Positions 5,222 to 33,699 of a DNA stretch of 33,699 nt are shown piece by piece. Made by a program: the position numbers and the translations under genes. Each line of letters begins with the position of its first letter. Position 1 is the first letter of the stretch. Origin of the DNA: a virus. Location of the stretch: the UHGV virus genome UHGV-0139590. One strand, given 5' to 3'. The notes beneath the pieces are model-generated. The model was given only the letters and a program-made list of their open reading frames with translations. It ran no database searches and was not told the DNA's origin.

Positions 5222-7404
5222 TCAAAGACTGGATTAAAAACCACCTGATCCCTGAGAAACGTGACGCCGGGTTATGGCCCGGTTTTACCGACGCACTCCA
5301 GGAAACCTACGAAGATCAGATAGAGCCACTGCTTGAGCGCCTAAGCGCGCGTAAATCGTTCTTCACCATGCACCCGGACGATCTGGATAAGCGCATCAAA
5401 GAGTACGGGCAGTTTTTCGTTATTGGTCAAAACGGCACGGCCAGCAGGCCCATTCTGCTGACCCAGCGCCTTGATGAGGTTCATTTTAAAGGGACGGATC
5501 AGCCCATCATTGCAACTTTCTGGCGCGAATTCGGTAATCTACCGGTTACGTGGGAACCGCTTTATGCGCCGGTTGACCAAGATTTATGCCCCTACGGCAT
5601 GTTTTTCACCACCGCTGCTGGAATGGAGGTAGCCGCCGCCTCATTCGGTGAGTTTTTCCTCACGTCGCGCGGCACCATCAGCGTGGATCTCAACCGGCTT
5701 TATGAGATATACGGCTTTGATGAACAGGACAAGCTGGTTAAGCGCCTTATCAGCGATTTTGACCGTATCGTTGCCCCATTGCTGCCGCTGGAAACCGTCT
5801 TTGACGGGATCTCGCTGCGTCTCGACTTCTGGCTTGAAGAGGCTCGCGACGAGATCGAAATCCTCAGCATCACCACCGGTTCGAAAGAGCCTAATTTTGT
5901 ATTCCGGCCAGCCCGGGAGCTGATGCAGTTAACGCGCACGACTATCAAGCATCCTACCGCCGCATTTGCCCCGGATCGGCGATCGCTGGATACATTTATG
6001 CTGACGCTGGACGGCATGCCGTCCGATGCCTGGCGACTTGATATGCCTGTGATTATCCCGCCTTTGCTTCCGGGAGGCCCTGAAAACGATCCGCGTCTGC
6101 GCTCGGATAATGCGCGCTTGCTACTGGATACCCTCGGCCAGTGGGGCTGCGTGATGGAACTGACTACCGGCGACGTTCGCCGCCTGGCCTTCCCGGGTTG
6201 GGCGCTTGCCGTGGTGCTGCCGGTTGCCGTCAGTGACCGGGCGCTGATCCGCAAAATCACATGGTGTAGTGAACACGACTCACAGCAGGTAATGATGTCC
6301 GCGCAGGATAACGGCCAGCAAATGACTGTTAAGGGGCAAAACGTTACCGCTTCGGCGACATTGCAGATCCCCGCGCCGATTATGGTGCTGGAAGGTGCTG
6401 TTACCCATACGCAAACCATCGTCAGTAGCTTGCTTGCCGATACTGAGAGCCAGCATATCGCCTTTGATGAAACCCCCGCTGATGCCTGGCCGCTGGATAT
6501 GCAGACCATCGCCGCGCCTATTCTTGGATCGCGCCCGGACCCGCGCTTAACCAGCCAGGGCGACACGACTTTGCTGGATACACTCGGGATGTGGGGTTGC
6601 GTCATTGAGCTGGCCGGGGGAGAGGTTCGCCGTTATGCCTTCCCGGGTTGGGCTGACCGGGTGACGTTACCCATGCCGCTGGCCGTGATCGTGAAAATAA
6701 CCTACAGCGCAGAGCATGAGATCGTGAATGCAAGTGCATCCGTTCAGGACCAGGAGCAGGGCGTGAGCCTCAAGCGGAAATCCGTTGTCACCCCGCAAAC
6801 CGTGGCGCAGGAAGAGGACGCGGCCAGTCTGAGTAAGGTCAGTACCGCCACCACGCCGGATGTGCAAGGGCAAACCGCCAGCACTGACTCGCTGCCGGTA
6901 GCCTTTGATGAAACGCCAGCCGATGCGTGGCGGCTTGATGTGCAGACTATCCCTGCGCCGGTAGTGCCGGGATCGCGCCCGGACACCCGCCTGAGCAGTG
7001 ACGGCACAAAGGTCACGCTGGAGACACTCGGCATGTGGGGCTGCGTCATTGAGCTGACCACTGGCGATGTATTCCGCTTCGCCTTCCCTGGATGGGCTGA
7101 CCGCGCCATTCTGCCGTTTGAAATAGCGCAGATCCGCAAAATCACCTACAGCAACGAGCAGGATATCAATTCCCTGAGCGCCAACGTGCAGGAGAAGTCC
7201 GACCAGACCAGCACGGCAACTACCCGCGCCACGTTAAATCAGTCCGTGACGGAAACCACAACGGAAATGACAGGCGGACAGACCACAGACCAATGGAGTG
7301 CCACGGCAGAAGTGAATAAACCGAACGTACAGCCAGACCCGGCAACCATTGACAGTATGCCGCTTGACGCGTGGCCGCTGGACCAGGAGATCCCGCGAGA
7401 GTAA
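5218..7404 (+). CDS. Tail/baseplate protein with three tandem ~145-aa domain repeats (728 aa)
   Basis: GTG start overlapping the upstream stop, GGGGAG 9 nt upstream. Three repeats share DAWxLDxxxIxxPxxxGxRPxxRLxSxxxxxLLDTLGxWGCVxELxxGxVRRxAFPGWA, plus a partial fourth copy at the C-terminus (DSMPLDAWPLDQEIPRE). Confidence 0.65.
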   Translation: MIKDWIKNHLIPEKRDAGLWPGFTDALQETYEDQIEPLLERLSARKSFFTMHPDDLDKRIKEYGQFFVIGQNGTASRPILLTQRLDEVHFKGTDQPIIATFWREFGNLPVTWEPLYAPVDQDLCPYGMFFTTAAGMEVAAASFGEFFLTSRGTISVDLNRLYEIYGFDEQDKLVKRLISDFDRIVAPLLPLETVFDGISLRLDFWLEEARDEIEILSITTGSKEPNFVFRPARELMQLTRTTIKHPTAAFAPDRRSLDTFMLTLDGMPSDAWRLDMPVIIPPLLPGGPENDPRLRSDNARLLLDTLGQWGCVMELTTGDVRRLAFPGWALAVVLPVAVSDRALIRKITWCSEHDSQQVMMSAQDNGQQMTVKGQNVTASATLQIPAPIMVLEGAVTHTQTIVSSLLADTESQHIAFDETPADAWPLDMQTIAAPILGSRPDPRLTSQGDTTLLDTLGMWGCVIELAGGEVRRYAFPGWADRVTLPMPLAVIVKITYSAEHEIVNASASVQDQEQGVSLKRKSVVTPQTVAQEEDAASLSKVSTATTPDVQGQTASTDSLPVAFDETPADAWRLDVQTIPAPVVPGSRPDTRLSSDGTKVTLETLGMWGCVIELTTGDVFRFAFPGWADRAILPFEIAQIRKITYSNEQDINSLSANVQEKSDQTSTATTRATLNQSVTETTTEMTGGQTTDQWSATAEVNKPNVQPDPATIDSMPLDAWPLDQEIPRE
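5990..7404 (+). repeat. Three tandem coding repeats (~440-480 nt period) plus a partial fourth
   Basis: Repeat units begin near 6010, 6456 and 6898; partial copy 7346-7404. Similarity is visible at both protein and DNA level. Confidence 0.7.
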
Positions 7405-18135: not shown

Positions 18136-18666
18136 TTAGATCACAAACCAGTCTTCGGCCTGCTCGTCATTCAGCGAAGGGAAAAATTCCACCTCACCTC
18201 CATTAGAATCGAGCAAAAATAAATCATCATTTTCAATGAGAACGTAGCTCGCCGGAACCCAGCTAAGACGCCCTATGAATCGACCAGTACGCGCTGAAAA
18301 ACGCAGTGCTAATTCATACTTCACGTTGCGCCCCCGAAATATTCCAGTAGTTAATCTGAGGGCGATTTGTCGCAGTAAACCGGGCAGAAAAGATACAAGG
18401 TGCGTCGGGTAGTTGAGAACGGGCTTCGGATTCGCTTGCAGCAATAACCGTGTGATAGCGGCGTTTCTGGCAGGAATAGAAGCGCCATATAAATTCAGAG
18501 TGAATCTGGGTAGGGATTGCCAGCATGAGCTGATCTCCGATAACAGTTTAAAACTATCACCACCTGGAGTTTCCACGCTCTGATTGGTGGTGACGCTGAC
18601 GGGGGTGGAAATACCGGCGTTATCGGGAACCGGCCAGCCCGAGAGCTGCCCCGCCAGCGCCACCAT
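18136..18666 (-). CDS. Hypothetical protein (176 aa), weak call
   Basis: Longest ORF in a region with several overlapping ORFs on both strands. No clear SD. Ends exactly at the IS left boundary. No HUH motif, so not TnpA. Confidence 0.3.
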   Translation of the reverse strand: MVALAGQLSGWPVPDNAGISTPVSVTTNQSVETPGGDSFKLLSEISSCWQSLPRFTLNLYGASIPARNAAITRLLLQANPKPVLNYPTHLVSFLPGLLRQIALRLTTGIFRGRNVKYELALRFSARTGRFIGRLSWVPASYVLIENDDLFLLDSNGGEVEFFPSLNDEQAEDWFVI

Positions 18667-18718
18667 AATTTTGTGCGGATCTGTGCCGCTGAATATGGGG
18701 GTACTGACTTACGACAAT

Positions 18719-20987: not shown

Positions 20988-21911
20988 CTACTGATATCCA
21001 CGAAAACCTTTCGGGATCTTGCCGTAATCAACACCTGCGAAGGATTCCCGGAAAACGGTGTCATTCTTGCCATTCCCGGTAGTTTTAAACGCGCTCAGCA
21101 CTTTGAGCATCATGCTCTTGAGCTGGTTAATCTCATTGCCCTGGCGCTGGTTGTAGCGTTCCTCTGCGGCATTGAGCTGGCCCTGAATACGCGTTGCCGT
21201 GATAAGCGCATTCCACTCGGCAAGTGTTTTCCCCTGATAAGCCTGATCCGGTTTATCCACAACCTGCGACGGCTCAGGCGCACTATTTGGATTTTTTTCT
21301 CTTTCAGAAGAAGCAGTAACTATCTCCTTTTGTGCCTCATCTTGCGCCCCGGCTCCCCGCTTCGTTTTGCGCCCCCCTTCTTTAATGACAATCAGAGCTG
21401 ACGCGGCTTTCAGAGCAAACACCATTACTTTTTGTTTCAGGCGGCTGACGGTCTTGCGATAGAGGAAAATGGCGAGGCAAAACAGCATGGCTGGACGGGT
21501 GAGGGTGCGGCGGGCGGTTTCCGTTCCAATTGTGCCTTGGGGAATTTCGGAATTAAAAATCGCGCGTCCGGCATTGCTGGTGGTGAAGCGATCGAGGGTA
21601 GCAATGGACACTTCCGCTTCCTGGGCGATGGTCTTGCGGCTGGCGTAGCAAACGCCGGTATGTGACGGGTTAACTTTGTTGGCAATGCACCCGGCAATAA
21701 TTTTTCCGGTACGGCTGACGAGTGATGCAGGAAGGTAGGCGAGGGCGTTGCTTAATTTGTAGCCTGTAGGGAAAGCGCGTTGCAGTTCGAGCCATAGCGC
21801 GGCGTTGTCCATTTCAAGATAAGCGGAAAACTCAGGCAGGCCGGGGAATAGTGTGGGTTTTATTGCACTATCTGGTAAAGAATTAGGCTGGATTTGGTCA
21901 CAGTTTTGCAT
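20988..21911 (-). CDS. HTH-domain protein (307 aa), possible regulator or replication-associated protein
   Basis: ATG 21911 with AGGAAAT upstream. N-terminal region ...TGVCYASRKTIAQEAEVSIATLDRF... resembles winged-helix HTH modules. Convergent with the hydrolase gene. Confidence 0.5.
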   Translation of the reverse strand: MQNCDQIQPNSLPDSAIKPTLFPGLPEFSAYLEMDNAALWLELQRAFPTGYKLSNALAYLPASLVSRTGKIIAGCIANKVNPSHTGVCYASRKTIAQEAEVSIATLDRFTTSNAGRAIFNSEIPQGTIGTETARRTLTRPAMLFCLAIFLYRKTVSRLKQKVMVFALKAASALIVIKEGGRKTKRGAGAQDEAQKEIVTASSEREKNPNSAPEPSQVVDKPDQAYQGKTLAEWNALITATRIQGQLNAAEERYNQRQGNEINQLKSMMLKVLSAFKTTGNGKNDTVFRESFAGVDYGKIPKGFRGYQ

Positions 21912-22210
21912 TATTATTTCCTAAGTTGTTTGGGGCCTTTATGGATGAGCTGCCCCGCCTGCGCCCGCCAAGGCGCTGGTTGTTGGTTGAGAGTGGTATC
22001 TCGAAGTTCTTTGCCAGGTCGCCAAACCAATGGGCATCGAACAAAATCTTTAGAAAGCTGGTGGATCGCCATCCTCCGGCTTTTTTCTTTTTTATCCTGT
22101 CATAGCGTCATTCCTTGTTGTTTTTCAGGCACGACAAAACCGCACCGATAATTCGGCGCTGAGTGATTTTTACTCAGGGGACTGACACACGAAAACGCGC
22201 ATGAAAAAAC

Positions 22211-25317: not shown

Positions 25318-28300
25318 ATGGCAAACACTGTATTGGATCATCTGAACAGTGCCGGATCGCTGGATGAGATTGTTACCCTCATTCTTCGGCTGCGAAAATC
25401 GCGCGCCGTGGCACAGTTCGGCATTGTCAAAGAGGACGGCGTGAGTATTCAGCGCGCGCGGCGAGCTGCAAATAACGCTGCAATGCGCCTGCTGCAAGAG
25501 CTGCCGGAGAACATGGACGGCAATAAGCTGACTGACGAACAGCGGCAGGTGCTGGCCGGTTATACCGGGGAAGGGGGCCTGACAGACGGAGGCAGTCAAT
25601 ACGAGTATTACACTCCACAGTTTATGGCAGAGGGTATCTGGGATCTGATGGCCGATTATGGCGTTACATCAGGCCACGTCCTGGAACCGTCCGCCGCAAC
25701 CGGCATCTTCCAGGAAACCAAGCCGCAGGGGGCGATCATGACCGCCGCCGAAATTTCGCCGGTTTCTGGCCGCATCAACCAGCTGCTGCACCCGGAAGAC
25801 GATGTGCGCATGGGGGCATTTGAGGACCTGGCCGCGAACGTGGGCGATGACACCTACGATCACGCCGTCGGCAATATCCCGTTCGGTGAAAGCCGTACCG
25901 GATATGCTGAGCGCGATCCGGCGTACAAAGGGGAAACGAACGTCGGGCATTACTTTGTCCTGCGTACCATCGACAAGGTGAAGCCGGGCGGGCTGGTGGT
26001 GCTGGTGGTGCCAAACGGCATGACCGACGGCGGCGGAACCAACAAAAAGCTGCGTGATAAAGTGGCGCGCCGCGCGGAGTTTCTGGGGGCGCACCGTATG
26101 CCGTCCGGCACTTTCGCCGAAAGCGGCACCGCGACAGTGGTTGACGTGTGGGTACTGCGTAAACACACCCGCGCGCTGGCAGAGATCGTCAGCAATGCCG
26201 ACGATAAAACCCTGACCGCCGCCCACGTACTCTGGCCGACGTTCCTCAAGGGCAAATGGTTTGCGACTGAGGGCAAGCGGTTTGTCCACGGCGAAACAGA
26301 GCGATCCAGCTTCAACAACATTCTGACGGTCAAAAAAGACGGCCGCGTAACCAATGAAGGCATGAAACAGGCGTTATCGCGCCGGTTTGACAGCCGTATC
26401 GCCTGGGAAATGCTGGACGTGAACCAGGATGCATACAAAGGCGCGAATGAAGGTGATAAGCGGCTGGTGGGCGGTATCTGGCATGTTTATGACGGCGAAA
26501 CGTGGGTCCGTGACAGTACGACCGATCGCAGCGGCATTGACGCGGAACGCTTCGGGGCGCAGACCTTCGGGGATCTCCAGACAAAATGCCGGTCGCTGCA
26601 TGGCCTGCTGTCTCTCAGCGCCAGCCAGCTCGCCGCCATTGCTGATGTCTATCCGGCGCTGCTGACCGATCGCCAGCACAACGTGATGACGTTTGCTCGC
26701 CAGCAAAAGCCATCCCAGCGCGAGCGCGCGCTGCGTGGGGCGCTGATTGGCCTCACCATCAACGATGCGCAGGACCTGATCGCCCAGGGCAATGATGCAG
26801 GCCCGCTGCTGGCCGACGCCGCGCGTATGGTTGAACAGGAAATTGCGGTCTATGGCTCACCAAACGGCCTGCGCCTGGCCGGGCTTTCCGATCCCGCGGC
26901 TAAAGGCTGGCTGACCTTCCAGGGCAACGTTACCCGCGACAGTAAGCTCTCTGATTTGTTGACCGGTCGCCTTAATACCGAGTCTGTTTCTCCGGTCGAT
27001 ACCGGCAACCCTGAGCAGGTTGTGGCACACCTTTTCAGCCAGATTGACCTGGTGCCGGTGTCGCTTGAGCAATTCCGTGACTATTGCACCGCGCAGCTGC
27101 CGTCCTCAGATGACGCGCTTCTGGACTACCTGGCGAACTTCCCGGAAATCGCGCTCGATGGCTACGGCAACATTCTGCCGATGTCGCGCGCCACCAGCGG
27201 CAACGTGCGCGGGAAAATGACCACGCTGGCCGCGCAGATAGCCGGACTCCAGGACGGCCCGCAAAAGCAAAATCTGGTACGCCAGATGATGCTGATTGAC
27301 GAAAAGCGTAACCCGGTCCCGATCGACAAAATCACGGTAAACCTTAACGCCCGCTGGCTTGATCGTCGTTTGATTAAAGAGTTTCTGGCCGAGCAGGGTT
27401 ATGACGCTTTTAAATACACCCAGGACATTCAGGTGGAAGACGGTTTCCTTGTCTCCCCGGATGATTACGCGGGCAAGGACGGCGTTTTCAGTGGCTATAA
27501 GCTGCGCACCGTTACCAGCAAGGGTGTCACTGAATTTAAGCAGGCCAACAACAGCGACGGCTTTTTAAACCAGCTGGAAAACTACCTTAACGGCGTCAAG
27601 CCGCGCGGGGTGAATGCTGCCCAGTACCTGGATCGCATCGGCAAGCTGGAAGCCTCTTTCAACGACTGGCTGAAATCGCACCCGGACGTTACCGGCGTTG
27701 AGAATGATTACAACGACGCGTTTAACAACTACGTCCCGTTCGAGCATTCCAGCGAATCTCTGAGTCTCGAAGGCATTTCCGGCAAACGTATCCCGCTGAG
27801 TTACCAGAACTCCGAGGTTCGCCGTCTTTCAGAGGACGGGCGCGGCATTATGGGATTCGGCACCGGTCTGGGTAAAACCACGACCGCGCTGGCGCTGGAG
27901 GCGTTTAACTTCCAGCATGGCCGCTCAAAACGGACCGCGATTGTCGTACCGAAGGCCGTTTATCAGAACTGGTATCACGAAGCGCGCGACTTCTACGGTG
28001 ACGCGGCATTCAGTCAGATGCTTTTTATCGGACTGGATGAAGTGATGGGCGATAACGGTATTCAGCAATCGCAGGTACGCAACGAGAACAACGAACCGGT
28101 TACGGATAGCGACGGCAACCCGGTAATGCGTAATGTCCTCAAGGATGCCGATACCGCCACCATTCTGGAGCGTCTGAACCGTATCCCTGCGTCGAATTAT
28201 CGCTCAGTCATCATGACAAAAGAGCAATTCGGCATGATCCCGATGCGCCCGGAAACGATTGAAGAGAACTCCGCGCAGGCGCTGTATAACGCCGTCGATA

Positions 28301-31300
28301 TGGGCCGCACTGACCTGATGAAATCGACGCACCGCGCAGAGCTGGCGAAGAACAAACTCAAAGACAAGGCCGCAGACACCGGCACCGAGAAGAAACAGCA
28401 GGTTCCGTACTTTGAGGACATGAACTTTGACAACGTGATCGCAGATGAAGGCCACAACTACAGGAACTCGCTTTCTGCTGGCCGTGAAACCGCGCAGCTG
28501 GCGTACCTGCCTAACCCGGCTGTATCGCAGATCGCGCGTGATATGTCGGTCAAGTCAGCCTGGTTGATGAAGAAATACAACGGGCGCGGCGTCACGCTGC
28601 TGACGGCCACACCGCTCGTTAACTCGCCGCTCGATGCCTTCAACATGTTGAGCCACGTCGTGCCGGTTGAAGACTGGAAGGCAATGGGCATCCTGACACC
28701 GGACGACTTTGTGCGCGTGTTCGGCGAAACCGCAAACGTGGTGGTGCAGAAGATATCCGGCGAACTGATGGATAAGCAGGGGCTGGTGGGCTTTAAAAAC
28801 CTGGACGGGTTGCGCGGTATCTTCCATCGCTGGACCACGTTAAAGACCGCTGCTGACGTGAAAGAAAGCGTCAAAATCCCGGACCTGAACGAGAAAAACG
28901 TAGAGGTTCCGCTGACCGATGAGCAGAAAGAGCTGTACGAAGCGTTGCGTAAGCGCGCCAGCCTGATCGGGCAGAAAGAGATCATCACCAAAAATGAAGA
29001 CGGCACGGTAACAGTCGAGCAAAACAAAGACGATGATTTTATCTTTTCCGTTATCCGCGACATGGACAAGATGGTTATCGACCCGGACTTATACCGATCG
29101 TCGCTGACCTTCCGTTTCCTGCCTGCCGATCTGGAAAAGGTCAAAGTTATTGCGGCCAGTCTGCCAGCCCATGCGGGTGGCAAAGAGGCCGATGATGATG
29201 ACGAGGTGGAAGAAAACGAGGCCGGGCTGGTGGACACTCGCACCAGTAAGGTTGTGGCAACGACCGTGACCGAAAAGGCCGACGCTACAGAGCTGATGGT
29301 CAGCGTGGATCTGGAAGCTGAGGTGATGAAAGCGATCGCCGCTGCCGGTATCAGTATGAAAACCGTCACGCACCCTATCCCGCCAAAATATGCGGCCATG
29401 ATTGAGAACCTGAAAGCCGGGATGCAGAACGGCAAGCAGATCATCTTTATGGACGAAAAGACGCAGCACAACAAACTACGCCGCATCATCGCCAGCGCGC
29501 TGGGGCTGGATGAAGGCCAGATAGGGATCATTAACGCCACGACTGTCAGCAAGGCAACCGGGCCGAAACTCAAGAAGGTTAAAAAGCCGGTTGAGCCTGC
29601 CGAGCGCGCCGACGGCAATTACAAAGAGGGTGCGTGGGAAAAATATTACGCCGACCTGGCACGATATGAAGATTACCAGTCTGCGCTCAATGACGTGTCG
29701 CTCTCCGGCATGGAGGGGATCGCCGCCGACTACAACGAAGGCCGGACCCCGATTGTTATCTGCAACAAAAAGGCAGAGGTCGGCATTAATTTGCACAAAG
29801 GCACTACGGATATTCACCATTTAACCTTCCCCTGGACGCCAGCGAGTATTTCGCAGCGTAACGGGCGCGGGGCGCGTGTTGGTTCCAGCCAGGACTCGGT
29901 GAATGTGCATTACTACTGCGGCCAGGGATCGTTTGATGAATTCCGTCTCCAGACGCTACAGCGCAAAAAGGACTGGATTAATCAGATCATGACATCCGAC
30001 ATGTCCACCTACAAAAACGGTGACGTGGATGAGAAAGATGAAATTAATCTGATGCTGGCCGCGAACCCGGAAGAGCGACAGGCGCGCATTAATGCCCAGC
30101 TGGCCGCACGTCGTGAAGTTGAACGACTCCGTGCTGAGAAGGAAGCCGAAACCGCGCTCGATGTGTACCTGCGCGCGTCCGTGGCAGCGAAAGAAGATCC
30201 GGTGGTGCTCGCCAGCCGCCTGGAGAGTGCCGAGCAAAAACTCACAGCGCACGAAGCGAAGGTGGAAGAATACCGCGCTTGGGTGAACAAAGAGGAAAGC
30301 GACTACAACAGCTGGATGGAAAGTCACGGCAAGCGCAGCGCAGATATTTACCACGCTGAACCGCGCCGCCGTGCTCGCTCAACCCTGAAAACAGCAGTTG
30401 AAACTCTGGTGGAGCTGAAAACGGATGTGAAGAAAGCACGTAACGTGCTCAGTCGGTCGAAAAGCGCCTCAACGATGGTGAAGCGGGCGCGCGGCGATCT
30501 GGAGCGTAGCATTAAAGCAGGCATCATTGACGTTGATCCCGATGTGCTGCTTAACCCGTCGCAGTACGTGAAAACGGCAACTGGCACCCTGCTGAAAGCT
30601 GGGGCGTATTACTGGATCGTTGGTGATTATCGCTACGTTGGTCGAATCACCCGCCTGATGCCTGATCAGGGTGCGGTGGAAGTGGATGTGATGTATGCCC
30701 CCATTAACGCGAATAGCTACAGGACACCGGGCGGAGGCGTGAGAGAAGTGCTGATGTCGAAGGTACGCGATCAGGTTGACGTAACCGAAAGCCAGGCCGT
30801 CGCCCGTCGCCGCGCTAACGCTGGTTTGTGGCCTTCCGAAGTCGCATCCACGCTCAGCCGTGCGGAGTTTATCGACGCCGTAGCGGGTAATTACCTGCGC
30901 GTGAAAGGCGATACATGGATGCAATATTCCGACGCCGGCACACTGGAAATGTTTTACGTTGCGGGTGGACTCAGCAGCGATAACCCGGAGCGCCTGGTTT
31001 ACCCGGACAGCAACGACGAAGGTTTAAAGCGCGCTATGTATCAATTCTCCGTGAACAACGGCATCTATTCCGTGCGCACCATGTATTCGGCGGTATTCGG
31101 TGAGAACTACAGCGAAGTGCTGGAAGGGTACGGCGAACAGGCAACGATGGCCGATGCGCTGGACATCTTCGAAACCGCTCGCCGGGAAGCCGAGAAGGAC
31201 AGTGGTGCGATCCTTGCCGGTGCATCAGAAGAAGAGGTGAATTCTGCCTTCTTCAATGGCGTGGATAGTGCCGTGCGCTTCTGGCAAGGCAGTCTGTCAG

Positions 31301-32160
31301 TGCGCAAGGTGATGACACACAGCAAGCGGTTCAGCAACCAGACGGAGATCCGCCAGTTTATCAGCACCATTCTGGACGATCGCATTGCCGTCAAGATTGA
31401 TGAGATTAACGAGGCCGTAGGGCGCGCCGCGAAAGAGCTGTACGCACAGTGCGAACGCCTGGAAGGGCGAACGGCGCTGGAGGAAGTGCGCCAGCTGGAT
31501 GACATGGACATTTCCGGCTTTATGAATCGCGCGCAGCAGTCGCGTAACCTGATGGCGCTCAACCTGCCCGAGCTGGTGATGGCCGGTGTGCTGGTGGGCG
31601 CATATTCACGTCAGATGGTCAATGCTGGTGTGTTCACGTCAGGAAGCCGGGTGCGTCAGCTGCTGGACTCTGGCCGCTACAAGTTGAAAGAGGTTAAAAA
31701 CGGGGGCTACAAGCCGCTTGCAGCCTCTTTTGATGAGTGGCTTGGCCTGATGGCCGGTGATCTCTCCGATACCGAGCTGGCCGCGCTGCGCGAGGCAGAA
31801 GAGGCCCGCAAGGCCAGCGAGGCAGAAGTCTTTGCCGGTCAGCAGGCGGCGGCAGGCGAATACGGTTATGTTGCCAGCACCAACCAGCAGGAGCTGGCAG
31901 GCCAGCGCAAATGGAAAAACCGCACGTTCAGAATGAGTTTCCCGGCTGGTGGTGCGCATGTGCTGAGTGACAGCAACGGTCGCGCCACGCTCAAAGCGAA
32001 GGCTGTACGTACCATGCTGAAAGAGAAGTACGGCGCGCAATTCTGGAACTTTGAAGACGATCCGGTGGCGGGTAATGAGTTTACCCAGCCAGCATGGATT
32101 GTGCCGTCACGATTCCCTATTGAACAAATTCACAGTGATATTCAGGCACTGGTCAGCTAA
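25318..32160 (+). CDS. darB: Giant N6-adenine methyltransferase / SF2 helicase fusion (2280 aa), DarB-like anti-restriction virion protein
   Basis: MTase motif I VLEPSAATGIF (about 25678-25710) and motif IV GNIPFGE (about 25866-25889). Helicase motifs GFGTGLGKTT, DEGH, LLTATP and QRNGRGARVG between about 27850 and 29880. Size and architecture match P1 DarB (about 2255 aa), next to portal/protease as in P1. Confidence 0.75.
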   Translation: MANTVLDHLNSAGSLDEIVTLILRLRKSRAVAQFGIVKEDGVSIQRARRAANNAAMRLLQELPENMDGNKLTDEQRQVLAGYTGEGGLTDGGSQYEYYTPQFMAEGIWDLMADYGVTSGHVLEPSAATGIFQETKPQGAIMTAAEISPVSGRINQLLHPEDDVRMGAFEDLAANVGDDTYDHAVGNIPFGESRTGYAERDPAYKGETNVGHYFVLRTIDKVKPGGLVVLVVPNGMTDGGGTNKKLRDKVARRAEFLGAHRMPSGTFAESGTATVVDVWVLRKHTRALAEIVSNADDKTLTAAHVLWPTFLKGKWFATEGKRFVHGETERSSFNNILTVKKDGRVTNEGMKQALSRRFDSRIAWEMLDVNQDAYKGANEGDKRLVGGIWHVYDGETWVRDSTTDRSGIDAERFGAQTFGDLQTKCRSLHGLLSLSASQLAAIADVYPALLTDRQHNVMTFARQQKPSQRERALRGALIGLTINDAQDLIAQGNDAGPLLADAARMVEQEIAVYGSPNGLRLAGLSDPAAKGWLTFQGNVTRDSKLSDLLTGRLNTESVSPVDTGNPEQVVAHLFSQIDLVPVSLEQFRDYCTAQLPSSDDALLDYLANFPEIALDGYGNILPMSRATSGNVRGKMTTLAAQIAGLQDGPQKQNLVRQMMLIDEKRNPVPIDKITVNLNARWLDRRLIKEFLAEQGYDAFKYTQDIQVEDGFLVSPDDYAGKDGVFSGYKLRTVTSKGVTEFKQANNSDGFLNQLENYLNGVKPRGVNAAQYLDRIGKLEASFNDWLKSHPDVTGVENDYNDAFNNYVPFEHSSESLSLEGISGKRIPLSYQNSEVRRLSEDGRGIMGFGTGLGKTTTALALEAFNFQHGRSKRTAIVVPKAVYQNWYHEARDFYGDAAFSQMLFIGLDEVMGDNGIQQSQVRNENNEPVTDSDGNPVMRNVLKDADTATILERLNRIPASNYRSVIMTKEQFGMIPMRPETIEENSAQALYNAVDMGRTDLMKSTHRAELAKNKLKDKAADTGTEKKQQVPYFEDMNFDNVIADEGHNYRNSLSAGRETAQLAYLPNPAVSQIARDMSVKSAWLMKKYNGRGVTLLTATPLVNSPLDAFNMLSHVVPVEDWKAMGILTPDDFVRVFGETANVVVQKISGELMDKQGLVGFKNLDGLRGIFHRWTTLKTAADVKESVKIPDLNEKNVEVPLTDEQKELYEALRKRASLIGQKEIITKNEDGTVTVEQNKDDDFIFSVIRDMDKMVIDPDLYRSSLTFRFLPADLEKVKVIAASLPAHAGGKEADDDDEVEENEAGLVDTRTSKVVATTVTEKADATELMVSVDLEAEVMKAIAAAGISMKTVTHPIPPKYAAMIENLKAGMQNGKQIIFMDEKTQHNKLRRIIASALGLDEGQIGIINATTVSKATGPKLKKVKKPVEPAERADGNYKEGAWEKYYADLARYEDYQSALNDVSLSGMEGIAADYNEGRTPIVICNKKAEVGINLHKGTTDIHHLTFPWTPASISQRNGRGARVGSSQDSVNVHYYCGQGSFDEFRLQTLQRKKDWINQIMTSDMSTYKNGDVDEKDEINLMLAANPEERQARINAQLAARREVERLRAEKEAETALDVYLRASVAAKEDPVVLASRLESAEQKLTAHEAKVEEYRAWVNKEESDYNSWMESHGKRSADIYHAEPRRRARSTLKTAVETLVELKTDVKKARNVLSRSKSASTMVKRARGDLERSIKAGIIDVDPDVLLNPSQYVKTATGTLLKAGAYYWIVGDYRYVGRITRLMPDQGAVEVDVMYAPINANSYRTPGGGVREVLMSKVRDQVDVTESQAVARRRANAGLWPSEVASTLSRAEFIDAVAGNYLRVKGDTWMQYSDAGTLEMFYVAGGLSSDNPERLVYPDSNDEGLKRAMYQFSVNNGIYSVRTMYSAVFGENYSEVLEGYGEQATMADALDIFETARREAEKDSGAILAGASEEEVNSAFFNGVDSAVRFWQGSLSVRKVMTHSKRFSNQTEIRQFISTILDDRIAVKIDEINEAVGRAAKELYAQCERLEGRTALEEVRQLDDMDISGFMNRAQQSRNLMALNLPELVMAGVLVGAYSRQMVNAGVFTSGSRVRQLLDSGRYKLKEVKNGGYKPLAASFDEWLGLMAGDLSDTELAALREAEEARKASEAEVFAGQQAAAGEYGYVASTNQQELAGQRKWKNRTFRMSFPAGGAHVLSDSNGRATLKAKAVRTMLKEKYGAQFWNFEDDPVAGNEFTQPAWIVPSRFPIEQIHSDIQALVS

Positions 32161-32194
32161 CACAGGAGCGCCCGGGAAACCGGGCGAAAGACTT

Positions 32195-32629
32195 ATGACA
32201 ACGTTAATCGACACCGTTTTACCGACCGAAGAGCATCTGGAAGGGATTTTAATCGCGCATGCGCTGGAGGGGCGGGAAGAGGGCGAGTTTGTGGAGGCTT
32301 ACCTGCGCGGGCTGGAGCAACGGCTTGCGGCCAACTCTCTTTCGTACCGGGCATTTGGTCCGTGGTGGCCTGCACTGAAAACCATGCTCCTGGAGCGCGG
32401 CATCACAACCTGGGGGCAGATCGTTGATAGTGACGTGGCCGAGATTTACAGCATGCGCAGACCTGCATTGACGCTGGTAGCAGCACATCTTTATGCTGAT
32501 GAAGTCGCGGATACTGGTAATATGTTCAGTGCTGATCATCTGCTCAGCGTTATGCCGTCCGCTGACGACACGGAGCCGTATCATTATGTGAGCTACGATG
32601 AGTCTGTGGAGAAGTACAAACTGAAATAA
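32195..32629 (+). CDS. Hypothetical protein (144 aa)
   Basis: ATG 32195 chosen; the ORF-track start at 32051 would overlap the 3' end of the DarB-like gene. Weak SD. Confidence 0.45.
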   Translation: MTTLIDTVLPTEEHLEGILIAHALEGREEGEFVEAYLRGLEQRLAANSLSYRAFGPWWPALKTMLLERGITTWGQIVDSDVAEIYSMRRPALTLVAAHLYADEVADTGNMFSADHLLSVMPSADDTEPYHYVSYDESVEKYKLK

Positions 32630-32639
32630 GAGGCCGACA

Positions 32640-32894
32640 ATGACAAACCGCCCCAGGAAATTTTATACCATCAGTGAGCTGACCGAACTGGCCCGCGCCC
32701 ACGGCTGCGAGCTGCGCTACAAACGCACTCAGGCGGTGTTTTCGCTGCATCTGGCAGGCAAGCCGGAACAGTGGAGCTGGATTATAAACCCGGCGAGCGG
32801 TGAGCGGGTGAGGCTGGTGCGCGAGTTAGACAGGCACGAATGGGGCGTGTTGCTGGCGCGATCGCGCGATGAACTGGCCCGCAGGCATGGATAA
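32640..32894 (+). CDS. Hypothetical protein (84 aa)
   Basis: ATG 32640 with AAGAGG upstream. Confidence 0.5.
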   Translation: MTNRPRKFYTISELTELARAHGCELRYKRTQAVFSLHLAGKPEQWSWIINPASGERVRLVRELDRHEWGVLLARSRDELARRHG

Positions 32895-32973
32895 AGAACA
32901 AACATAGCAACAAATGAAAATTAAACTTGCTCAAAATACATAAAAGCCTTAGATTCAATATGCATTAAGAAAA

Positions 32974-32993
32974 AGCCCGGCATAAGCCGGGCT
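32974..32993. terminator. Hairpin AGCCCGGC-ATAA-GCCGGGCT, flanked by an A-run 5' and TCCCATT 3'
   Basis: Perfect 8-bp stem. The T-run is better on the minus strand, so direction is ambiguous. Confidence 0.4.
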
Positions 32994-33055
32994 TCCCATT
33001 CAAAGCGGGTCAGAGTTTGGCGACCTAAACCCGCCTGAACAAAAGGAACTATACC

Positions 33056-33232
33056 ATGAAAGCATTCGCTCAGCGTGATTTTGTGCAACCCGTCAAACAC
33101 ACCCAGCAGCCTTCTGATGCCCGCGCATTCCAGGTTTTCGAAAACATCCTGCGCGTCTGGGTCCCTCTCTGCCTGTCCATCTTTGGTAGCGTCTGGCTCC
33201 TGAGCCTCGTCTACAAGCTCGCCACACTTTAA
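33056..33232 (+). CDS. Small membrane protein (58 aa), not in the supplied ORF track
   Basis: ATG 33056 with AAAAGGAAC upstream. Translation MKAFAQRDFVQPVKHTQQPSDARAFQVFENILRVWVPLCLSIFGSVWLLSLVYKLATL has a hydrophilic N-terminus and a C-terminal transmembrane helix. Confidence 0.4.
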   Translation: MKAFAQRDFVQPVKHTQQPSDARAFQVFENILRVWVPLCLSIFGSVWLLSLVYKLATL

Positions 33233-33273
33233 AAATAACCCTAAAAAACAAACCGGAATCTGCCGATTTGGTT

Positions 33274-33390
33274 GTGACTTTTAATGCGATTTTGGTTACG
33301 GGAAGTTGATTTGCGCCAATCAAAATTGCATTAAAGCGCAGTAACTAAGTCGATTGATTTTAATCGGTGTTAATGTGAGGCGCTCTCACA
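33274..33390. promoter_or_regulatory. Operator-like cluster of inverted repeats upstream of the 79-aa gene
   Basis: TTAATGCGATTTTGGTT (33281-33297) against AATCAAAATTGCATTAA (33318-33334), 15/17 inverted; CGATT-N6-AATCG (33351-33366); perfect TGTGAG-N5-CTCACA (33374-33390). TTAATG occurs three times. Confidence 0.35.
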
Positions 33391-33437
33391 CACAGCGAGC
33401 TCCTCTGGGTATTTCTTATTCCAATAAAGGCTAAAAA

Positions 33438-33677
33438 ATGACGTGTCCAAAGTATGTGATTTCTCCCGCTGGTGAAAAATGGATTGCAGCAAAAATTAAA
33501 GCATTTCGTGCGGAGCACATGCGTGAACCCAATCGTGACGAGGCTTTCAGCATCAAGCAGGCGTGGCGAGCGTTACAGATTGACGTTCAACTGAGAAAGC
33601 AAACCCGCCGCCTGCACAAAAAAATCTGCGATTCCGAAAATTTCCAGTGGCAACCCTCCGTCGCCCCCCGACGTTAG
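33438..33677 (+). CDS. Hypothetical basic protein (79 aa)
   Basis: ATG 33438 with AAAGG upstream. Preceded by the operator-like repeat cluster. Confidence 0.45.
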   Translation: MTCPKYVISPAGEKWIAAKIKAFRAEHMREPNRDEAFSIKQAWRALQIDVQLRKQTRRLHKKICDSENFQWQPSVAPRR

Positions 33678-33699
33678 CCCTGTATGACCCCCATTACTT

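Follow-up and report, generated by a model that had tools for sequence, protein, structure and literature searches.

Type I toxin–antitoxin loci such as hok/sok, ldr/rdl, symE/symR and timP/timR combine a protein of fewer than 60 amino acids, which has a single transmembrane (TM) helix, with an extended, structured leader and a small RNA (sRNA) that is fully complementary and carries a terminator; the toxins themselves are mostly just a hydrophobic helix. One account describes such loci as hard to find by homology and as thought to be narrowly distributed (PMC5367252). Here we analyse the right edge (positions 32895–33699) of UHGV virus genome UHGV-0139590, a stretch of 33,699 nt that we refer to in full as the window and that is part of a P1/D6-like phage-plasmid. 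This region carries a gene for a 58-residue membrane protein, and on the strand opposite its leader we predict a conserved cis-antisense sRNA of ~75 nt that is complementary to the entire mRNA leader. We estimate the probability that the sRNA and the membrane protein form a type I toxin–antitoxin-like pair at roughly 55%. The elements on which this reading is built are the following.

32927–32955, plus strand: predicted sigma-70 promoter of the small-protein mRNA (−35 TTGCTC at 32927–32932, 17-nt spacer, −10 TAGATT at 32950–32955)
32962–33055, plus strand: mRNA 5′ leader of ~94 nt, containing the complements of both sRNA hairpins and the Shine-Dalgarno (SD) sequence AAGGA
33056–33232, plus strand: gene for the 58-residue tail-anchored membrane protein, identified from homologues, pN/pS and hydropathy
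~33040 to ~32966, minus strand: predicted cis-antisense sRNA of ~75 nt, with two hairpins, a terminator and a −10 box
33048–33056, minus strand: predicted sRNA promoter (−10 TATAGT reading from 33053 to 33048; TGg at 33056–33054)
32975–32992, given in the plus-strand reading: hairpin 1, GCCCGGC-ATAA-GCCGGGC, in every case with an A-run ahead of it on the plus strand
33040–32998, minus strand: hairpin 2, the 5′ hairpin of the sRNA, with the loop GUCGCCAAAC and then a U/A-rich linker

Comparison with described systems

With ldr/rdl, timP/timR and symE/symR the cassette shares a small gene, a leader that is long and structured, and an sRNA of ~60–80 nt that is cis-encoded on the opposite strand inside the leader and start region, is fully complementary and ends in a rho-independent terminator, and with symE/symR also the embedding of the sRNA promoter at the start of the protein gene. 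It differs from all three in having no sequence or covariance-model similarity to Rdl, SymR, any other Rfam entry or a Pfam toxin family. Its protein is also longer than LdrD and TimP (53–59 residues across the family), is tail-anchored and has a conserved soluble N-terminal motif.

The hok/sok locus of plasmid R1 is likewise plasmid-borne and pairs a membrane protein of ~50 residues, translated from a structured mRNA, with an antisense RNA to the leader; a role in plasmid addiction or phage exclusion would be plausible for the cassette too. However, the TM helix of Hok is N-terminal and its C-terminus periplasmic, whereas the helix of the cassette protein is C-terminal, and the cassette has no mok-like overlapping frame that we could see, no Hok_Gef match in Pfam and no Sok match in Rfam. 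The C4 RNA of the icd-ant system of P1 and P7 (RF01695) offers a further parallel: it too is a small RNA of antisense type in P1-like phage-plasmids, and it governs the translation of a small open reading frame (ORF). In contrast to the predicted sRNA, which would be the product of a convergent cis-antisense gene, C4 is processed from its target's own transcript and acts on complementary sites there. The RNA at 32966–33040 gives no C4 match, and position, structure and target protein all differ.

The 58-residue membrane protein

The initial annotation had described an ORF of 58 codons at 33056–33232 with a good SD sequence and a C-terminal TM helix, and all of these are present as described. 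The product is MKAFAQRDFVQPVKHTQQPSDARAFQVFENILRVWVPLCLSIFGSVWLLSLVYKLATL; the SD sequence AAGGA lies at 33043–33047, 8 nt ahead of the ATG, and the hydrophobic C-terminal helix spans residues 34–52, where the 19-residue Kyte-Doolittle mean reaches its maximum of 2.07. In size and in possessing a TM helix the protein falls within the range of type I toxins (small hydrophobic or membrane proteins of less than about 60 residues). The ORF was also said to be absent from the ORF track, which is true of the track then in use, but RefSeq annotates the gene in E. coli ET210, Leclercia, Citrobacter and Pantoea plasmids. There it appears as a hypothetical protein of 54–59 residues at the same position in plasmids of 85–95 kb, and the copy in E. 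coli ET210 plasmid unnamed4, annotated in the same way, is identical to that of the window.

We found ~30 distinct homologues, all at the same syntenic position in phage-plasmids of 80–95 kb from E. coli, Leclercia, Citrobacter and Pantoea. Among 5.8 billion proteins a profile search recovered 22 homologous clusters, essentially all on contigs of phage-plasmid size (80–95 kb), and an exhaustive hidden Markov model search of 1.84 billion representatives recovered 7 clusters at 50% identity, none outside the family of the 58-residue protein. Family members are 53–59 residues long, and hydropathy predicts a TM helix in every one. They begin with M-[KN]-x-[FYL]-AQRDF-[VA], in which AQRDF is invariant, and continue with a polar linker that varies between members; next comes the C-terminal TM helix, built around the core LS-x-[FIL]-G, and after it a tail of 2–9 residues. 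The codons of the AQRDF region differ synonymously between homologues (GCT/GCC/GCG/GCA, CAG/CAA, CGT/CGC, GAT/GAC); the residues they encode are invariant, and selection therefore acts on the peptide. Among unsaturated pairs of small-protein genes pN/pS is ~0.2, and judged by these comparisons the gene evolves under purifying selection. By the same evidence the ORF, conserved at a fixed syntenic position as its first description would require, is a genuine gene of narrow distribution.

In one C. freundii plasmid the small protein (ABQH03_27155, P0023) is frameshifted, with the first 19 residues intact and the remainder out of frame, which is either toxin-like decay or a sequencing error.

Searches with the 58-residue protein found no Pfam family at E ≤ 1, nothing in PHROGs or PADLOC, and only a sub-threshold match to MamI in NCBIfam. 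Hok/Gef, Ldr, TisB, Ibs, ShoB, Fst and the other toxin families of Pfam were unmatched, and Pfam, PHROGs and NCBIfam gave no homology to superinfection exclusion (Sie) or holin families.

The leader and its promoter

We compared 28 distinct versions of the upstream sequence, taken from plasmid records, GTDB genomes, IMG/VR contigs and metagenome assemblies. In every comparison the ~95 nt ahead of the ATG are more conserved than the ORF itself; the structured part of this block, 32962–33055, had gone unmentioned in the initial annotation. A coding explanation was considered and rejected, as neither the openness nor the frame of the minus-strand ORF at 32921–33100 is preserved in the Citrobacter and Pantoea lineages.

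The TTG of the −35 box and the sequence TTAGATT are invariant in the 28 relatives. A promoter scan independently calls the Pantoea form of this promoter, TTGACG-17-TAGATT, while the version in the window scores 7/12 and falls under the threshold of the scan. The small-protein mRNA is predicted from these boxes to start near 32962. The plus-strand fold of the resulting leader has a free energy of −34.5 kcal/mol (z −2.6).

The predicted antisense sRNA

The sequence between an SD and its start codon is normally free to vary. Here A[CA]TATA is invariant in this spacer in 28/28 relatives, and its minus-strand reading, TATA[GT]T, is that of a −10 hexamer. A TGn extension is present in most lineages, and in the window the TGg of this extended −10 uses the complement of the ORF's start codon.

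The predicted transcript would end at hairpin 1, which on the minus strand has the form of a rho-independent terminator, a GC-rich stem-loop followed by a U-run at the 3′ end of the sRNA. As RNA it reads GCCCGGC-UUAU-GCCGGGC and then UUUUUCUU, and as minus-strand DNA GCCCGGC-TTAT-GCCGGGC-TTTTTCTT, the run being invariant in the 28 relatives. A terminator scan calls this element in the Pantoea homologue. The copy in the window is not listed, because the stem drawn by the tool extends into the T-run through G·T pairs.

Hairpin 2 remains paired despite full sequence change of its stems between lineages, which carry GCGGGT/ACCCGC, GTAGG/CCTAC, GCAGGGG/CCCCTGC, GCAGAGA/TCTCTGC or GCGAGC/GCTCGC. Its loop is GUCGCCAAAC in the window and in the Pantoea types, and GUUUGACGGC in the Citrobacter type. 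In the Citrobacter-type loci (L003, L006, L012 and L032–L036) the plus-strand hairpin-2 loop CGCCGTCAAAC is similar to what the window-type loop GTTTGGCGAC gives in reverse complement, as though the tip of the hairpin had been inverted between lineages.

For the analysis of covariation all 28 sequences were realigned by the covariance model. Fitting an alignment to a model favours the structure; the compensatory stems are already evident in the raw MAFFT alignment. In the realigned set 94.4% of cells are paired and 8 of the 17 pairs have changes on both sides (6/7 in hairpin 2). This degree of covariation was reached by none of 500 shuffles, and controls in which the partner was slid gave 26–60% pairing.

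Four observations place the sRNA on the minus strand. G·U cells number 28 on that strand as against 8 A·C cells, which correspond to G·U on the plus strand; the minimum free energy (MFE) of the minus strand lies below that of the plus strand in 26 of the 28 sequences; the minus-strand RNA of the window folds with −39.1 kcal/mol (z −4.7); and, L008 and L023 apart, the minus strand alone has a conserved U-tail. In these two Pantoea-type loci hairpin 1 is flanked both by the A-run and by a run of 8–9 T, so that transcription would be expected to end there in both directions, that of the sRNA as well as that of the plus strand, making it a bidirectional terminator or possibly an attenuator of the small-protein mRNA.

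The predicted sRNA is perfectly complementary to the leader up to 2–3 nt from the SD sequence, which at the level of sequence prediction gives the putative toxin mRNA the antisense RNA expected of a type I locus. A permissive cmscan of 32600–33699 against Rfam gave a best score of 23.5 bits (rnk_pseudo; threshold 55) and listed no antitoxin or antisense family (Sok, RdlD, SymR, IstR, Sib, OhsC, OrzO or C4). At gathering thresholds a C4 RNA at 18583–18670 is the sole Rfam match in the window. A DNA-pattern scan of viral contigs (IMG/VR) combined with the covariance model recovered the same phage-plasmid family and nothing wider.

A possible trans target of the sRNA loop was also considered. The 12-nt word GTTTGGCGACCT at 22016–22027 (minus strand) is identical to the hairpin-2 loop region of the leader (33015–33026) and therefore complementary to the loop of the predicted sRNA; it sits ~116 nt upstream of a 307-residue gene (20988–21911, minus strand), and ~0.004 such matches are expected by chance. 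The word is kept in Leclercia and absent from the homologous Pantoea and Citrobacter regions, which leaves this target unsupported.

Proposed function of the pair

Taken together, conservation, purifying selection, the TM helix and the predicted antisense sRNA over the leader support the suggestion made at the outset that the ORF encodes a real small membrane protein resembling small membrane toxins. A type I mechanism would operate as follows. The sigma-70 promoter TTGCTC-17-TAGATT would give an mRNA with a ~94-nt leader that encodes the 58-residue tail-anchored inner-membrane protein, and the opposing promoter, with its −10 TATAGT between the SD sequence and the start codon, would give the ~75-nt sRNA with two hairpins and a rho-independent terminator. 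The sRNA would pair with the leader, probably from the conserved hairpin-2 loop, and the duplex, ending 2–3 nt from the SD sequence, would block 30S binding and/or form a substrate for RNase III, keeping the protein off for as long as the plasmid and its sRNA are present. Were the sRNA to decay faster than the mRNA, upon plasmid loss or upon transcription shut-off in infection, the protein would be made, would insert into the membrane through its C-terminal helix and would then arrest or kill the cell, with plasmid addiction or abortive infection as the outcome. Post-segregational killing or abortive infection would be the obvious roles for such a pair on a low-copy plasmid prophage.

Several observations weigh against this interpretation. 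The sRNA promoter has no recognisable or conserved −35 box, and its TGn extension is absent from 4 lineages. The predicted sRNA start (~33040) leaves the SD sequence outside the duplex, and the plus-strand leader is able to form both hairpins as well (z −2.6). Neither the sRNA nor the protein matches any described type I family in Rfam or Pfam. In addition, so strongly conserved a motif in the cytosolic N-terminus is not typical of type I toxins and could point to a specific, non-lethal function.

This last point leads to the alternative that survives best, namely that the antisense sRNA is real but the protein is no toxin, and is instead a tail-anchored factor (for superinfection exclusion, lysis timing or the recruitment of a partner through AQRDF) whose level is tuned by the RNA. 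We regard this as possible rather than probable. It is consistent with a protein in which the soluble N-terminal decapeptide, and not the TM helix, is the most conserved part, with a family confined to one phage-plasmid lineage and with cassette neighbours that are anti-restriction and head-morphogenesis genes. However, a protein of < 60 residues with a single TM helix, a structured leader and a complementary sRNA is otherwise characteristic of type I loci, the frameshifted copy in the C. freundii plasmid is of a kind often seen for toxins, and the searches for Sie and holin families gave no homology.

Alternatively, there may be no antisense RNA, with both hairpins acting in the plus strand, hairpin 1 as a (bidirectional) terminator of the darB-ulx operon and hairpin 2 as a cis-regulatory structure of the leader. 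The ability of both hairpins to fold on the plus strand, the T-run that follows hairpin 1 there in L008 and L023, and a terminator scan that found no other terminator after the 84-residue gene in the window all agree with such an arrangement. Yet a conserved plus-strand promoter lies upstream of hairpin 1, so that the mRNA must read through it; a plus-strand U-tail is absent in most lineages whereas the minus-strand one is kept in all; the G·U cells (28 versus 8) favour the minus strand; and the invariant TATA[GT]T in the spacer between SD and ATG would be left unexplained. We consider this alternative unlikely.

The downstream spacer and the 79-residue protein

The small gene is followed by a spacer (33233–33437) and a second short gene, with these features.

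33249–33270, plus strand: degenerate terminator hairpin after the small gene, CAAACCGG-AATCTG-CCGATTTG, which as plus strand contains a C·A mismatch and has a weak U tail
33264–33352, plus strand: long imperfect RNA hairpin of 37 pairs (7 G·U), with the core inverted repeat 33280–33297/33318–33335
33368–33376, plus strand: candidate extended −10 promoter for the 79-residue gene, TGtTAATGT, a lone TGnTAnnnT motif
33374–33390 and 33377–33405, plus strand: TGTGAG-N5-CTCACA and, overlapping it, a larger GC-rich hairpin, GAGG-CGCT...AGCG-CCTC, that would form the 5′ end of the 79-residue protein's mRNA (predicted start near 33383)
33438–33677, plus strand: gene for a basic 79-residue protein (pI 10.3) of conserved length, with a predicted two-helix hairpin

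At the position of the first hairpin, strong plus-strand terminators are present in L001, L010, L029 and L030, and these are degraded in the window and its closest relatives; for the window hairpin the terminator scan reports the minus strand only.

The 79-residue protein has an identical length in eight lineages, with 21 invariant residues and 39–87% identity (L009, L010, L029, L030, L001 and L031), and from this comparison 33438–33677 is a real gene. It occurs only in the branch with the SIFGSVW helix in the small protein, is absent from the Citrobacter and Pantoea lineages and forms only 8 clusters in the collection of 5.8 billion proteins. In Leclercia L001 and L002 the 79-residue ORF is intact at 6787–7026 and is missing from the RefSeq annotation. 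The AlphaFold (AF2) model has a mean pLDDT of 85 and helices at residues 10–27 and 33–65, predicting that the protein forms a two-helix hairpin. No Pfam, PHROGs, NCBIfam or PADLOC family was matched, and a structure search with the model returned no significant match in the PDB, a two-helix hairpin being uninformative in such a search.

The long hairpin at 33264–33352 is built on an inverted repeat with 18-nt arms (33280–33297/33318–33335) that are complementary at 16 of 18 positions, a match found in 0 of 1000 shuffles. Its plus-strand RNA folds with −36.6 kcal/mol (z −5.7), compared with −16.2 kcal/mol (z −1.3) for the minus strand. The hairpin is kept only in close relatives of the window, namely L009 (32 of 37 pairs, with 2 compensatory changes) and L028 (33/37). 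Across lineages RNAalifold found no common structure for it, the distant lineages having shorter, out-of-register hairpins. It could be a 3′-UTR (untranslated region) element or a processing site.

Of the 8 lineages with the 79-residue gene, 6 have a single TGnTAnnnT motif 54–61 nt before its ATG; in Leclercia the motif is deleted. Given this placement, TGtTAATGT is a candidate extended −10 promoter of the gene, with a weak match to the −10 consensus. After the motif, 5 of 6 lineages have a hairpin, which differs in sequence between them and has a stability of −10.7 to −18.9 kcal/mol.

With these elements a more elaborate system can be envisaged, in which the type I-like core would be one part of a lineage-restricted addiction or abortive-infection system of more than two parts. 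The sRNA would control a tail-anchored effector whose AQRDF motif engages a specific cellular target, in place of simple perforation, and in the E. coli/Leclercia branch the long plus-strand RNA and the basic helical-hairpin protein would modulate it at the RNA level. We put little weight on this version.

The initial annotation had read the spacer as a repressor-controlled promoter, with TGTGAG-N5-CTCACA and three TTAATG copies as operators. The palindrome is present at 33374–33390 and overlaps the candidate −10 and start site of the 79-residue gene, a typical position for an operator; in addition, the window contains 3 copies of GTGAG-N(1–12)-CTCAC where 0.2 would be expected, and the neighbouring 79-residue protein is very basic. 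However, when the 205-nt spacer is shuffled with its dinucleotides preserved, 565 of 1000 shuffles contain a perfect inverted repeat with 6-bp arms and a spacer of ≤12 nt, so that the palindrome is at chance level, and the repeat is not conserved in relatives, being disrupted in the closest (L009), differently spaced in L028 and replaced by unrelated hairpin sequences elsewhere. The other two GTGAG...CTCAC sites (5648 and 17086) fall within long listed ORFs and not in intergenic spacers, and no DNA-binding family or fold was found for the 79-residue protein.

The three TTAATG copies exist only when both strands are combined (33281 and 33370 on the plus strand, 33329 on the minus strand). They are enriched (2 of 1000 shuffles), but two of the three are simply the arms of the inverted repeat 33280–33297/33318–33335, which is stable only as plus-strand RNA. 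The motif comparison with a known repressor operator was negative as well: ATTGCTCTAATAAATTT, which we take to be the consensus of the P1 C1-repressor operator from the P1 literature (17 bp, asymmetric), has 0 matches at ≤3 mismatches in the whole window, with the limit that the phage's own repressor may use a different site. With no inverted repeat that is both beyond chance and conserved at a promoter, as would be looked for in a generic palindromic operator, a repressor-controlled promoter in this spacer is very improbable. The sequence evidence favours RNA-level elements together with a constitutive-type promoter.

Genomic setting

Upstream of the cassette lie three further genes.

25318–32160: DarB-like methylase/helicase of 2280 residues
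32195–32629, plus strand: Ulx/OlxA-like anti-restriction gene (phrog_1629)
32640–32894: gene for an 84-residue protein (phrog_6844)

For the Ulx/OlxA-like gene, the mechanically called ORF (32051–32629, plus strand) begins at a TTG and has 192 codons, while homologues and the RefSeq annotation begin at the internal ATG at 32195, giving 144 residues. The window also encodes a T4-like portal gene, a CHAP lysin and a ddrB-like gene. The C4 antisense RNA (RF01695) at 18583–18670 on the minus strand scores 80.7 bits in the gathering scan and marks the P1-type immI region in this element.

Over 13 kb the closest complete records are two Leclercia adecarboxylata plasmids with ~90% identity. The best match overall is E. 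coli ET210 plasmid unnamed4 (NZ_CP100991.1), with 99.4% DNA identity over the 805 bp of the region, and it is the sole match among 5,426 complete E. coli genomes. A blastn search of the region against phages gave no match, and tblastn against 50,697 phage records gave noise only (E ≥ 2). The Leclercia, Citrobacter, Pantoea and E. coli plasmids share a gene order of DarB, OlxA, the 84–94-residue gene, the small gene and a VRR-NUC gene, with an RpoA-CTD-like gene farther on.

The nearest cultured phage is D6, a distant relative only. It has the DarB-Ulx-orf13-pmgM backbone with a 137-nt spacer (L038, 4540–4677) and without the small gene, and the sRNA covariance model found nothing in it. Because D6 keeps the same backbone without the cassette, the latter is an accessory insertion, or moron, of one sub-lineage. 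The comparison is best explained by an accessory cassette inserted into a D6/P1-like phage-plasmid, with the darB-ulx operon on one side and the VRR-NUC (pmgM-like) gene on the other. The turn to AT-rich composition reported earlier is real, GC content falling from 0.55 for the whole window to 0.46 for 32895–33699, but the loss sits in the two spacers (0.39–0.40) and not in the two ORFs, which have 0.50–0.54.

Past the right edge of the window, the gene that follows the VRR-NUC gene in L032–L035 (4029–4277) encodes 78 residues and has a precomputed Pfam assignment as Tad2-like (PF11195), an anti-Thoeris family; the match is weak in L032–L034 and unmarked in L035. A match of this kind downstream of the cassette fits a counter-defence neighbourhood.

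Implications

The locus illustrates how an operator-looking repeat cluster can prove to be RNA structure. The architecture of the cassette is itself familiar, while its protein and RNA families are lineage-restricted. The cassette is compact and would be tractable if its function is confirmed, with a sRNA–protein core of ~330 bp (32927–33270), or ~750 bp when the 79-residue gene is included (32927–33677), and it is carried by a cultured E. coli strain. The copy number of P1/D6-like phage-plasmids is low, and their stability modules and accessory genes affect persistence and spread, including those of resistance-carrying variants. If confirmed, the two partners described here would each represent a new family, one of toxins and the other of antisense RNAs, and the pair would add a second RNA-based control element, besides C4, to the P1-like elements.

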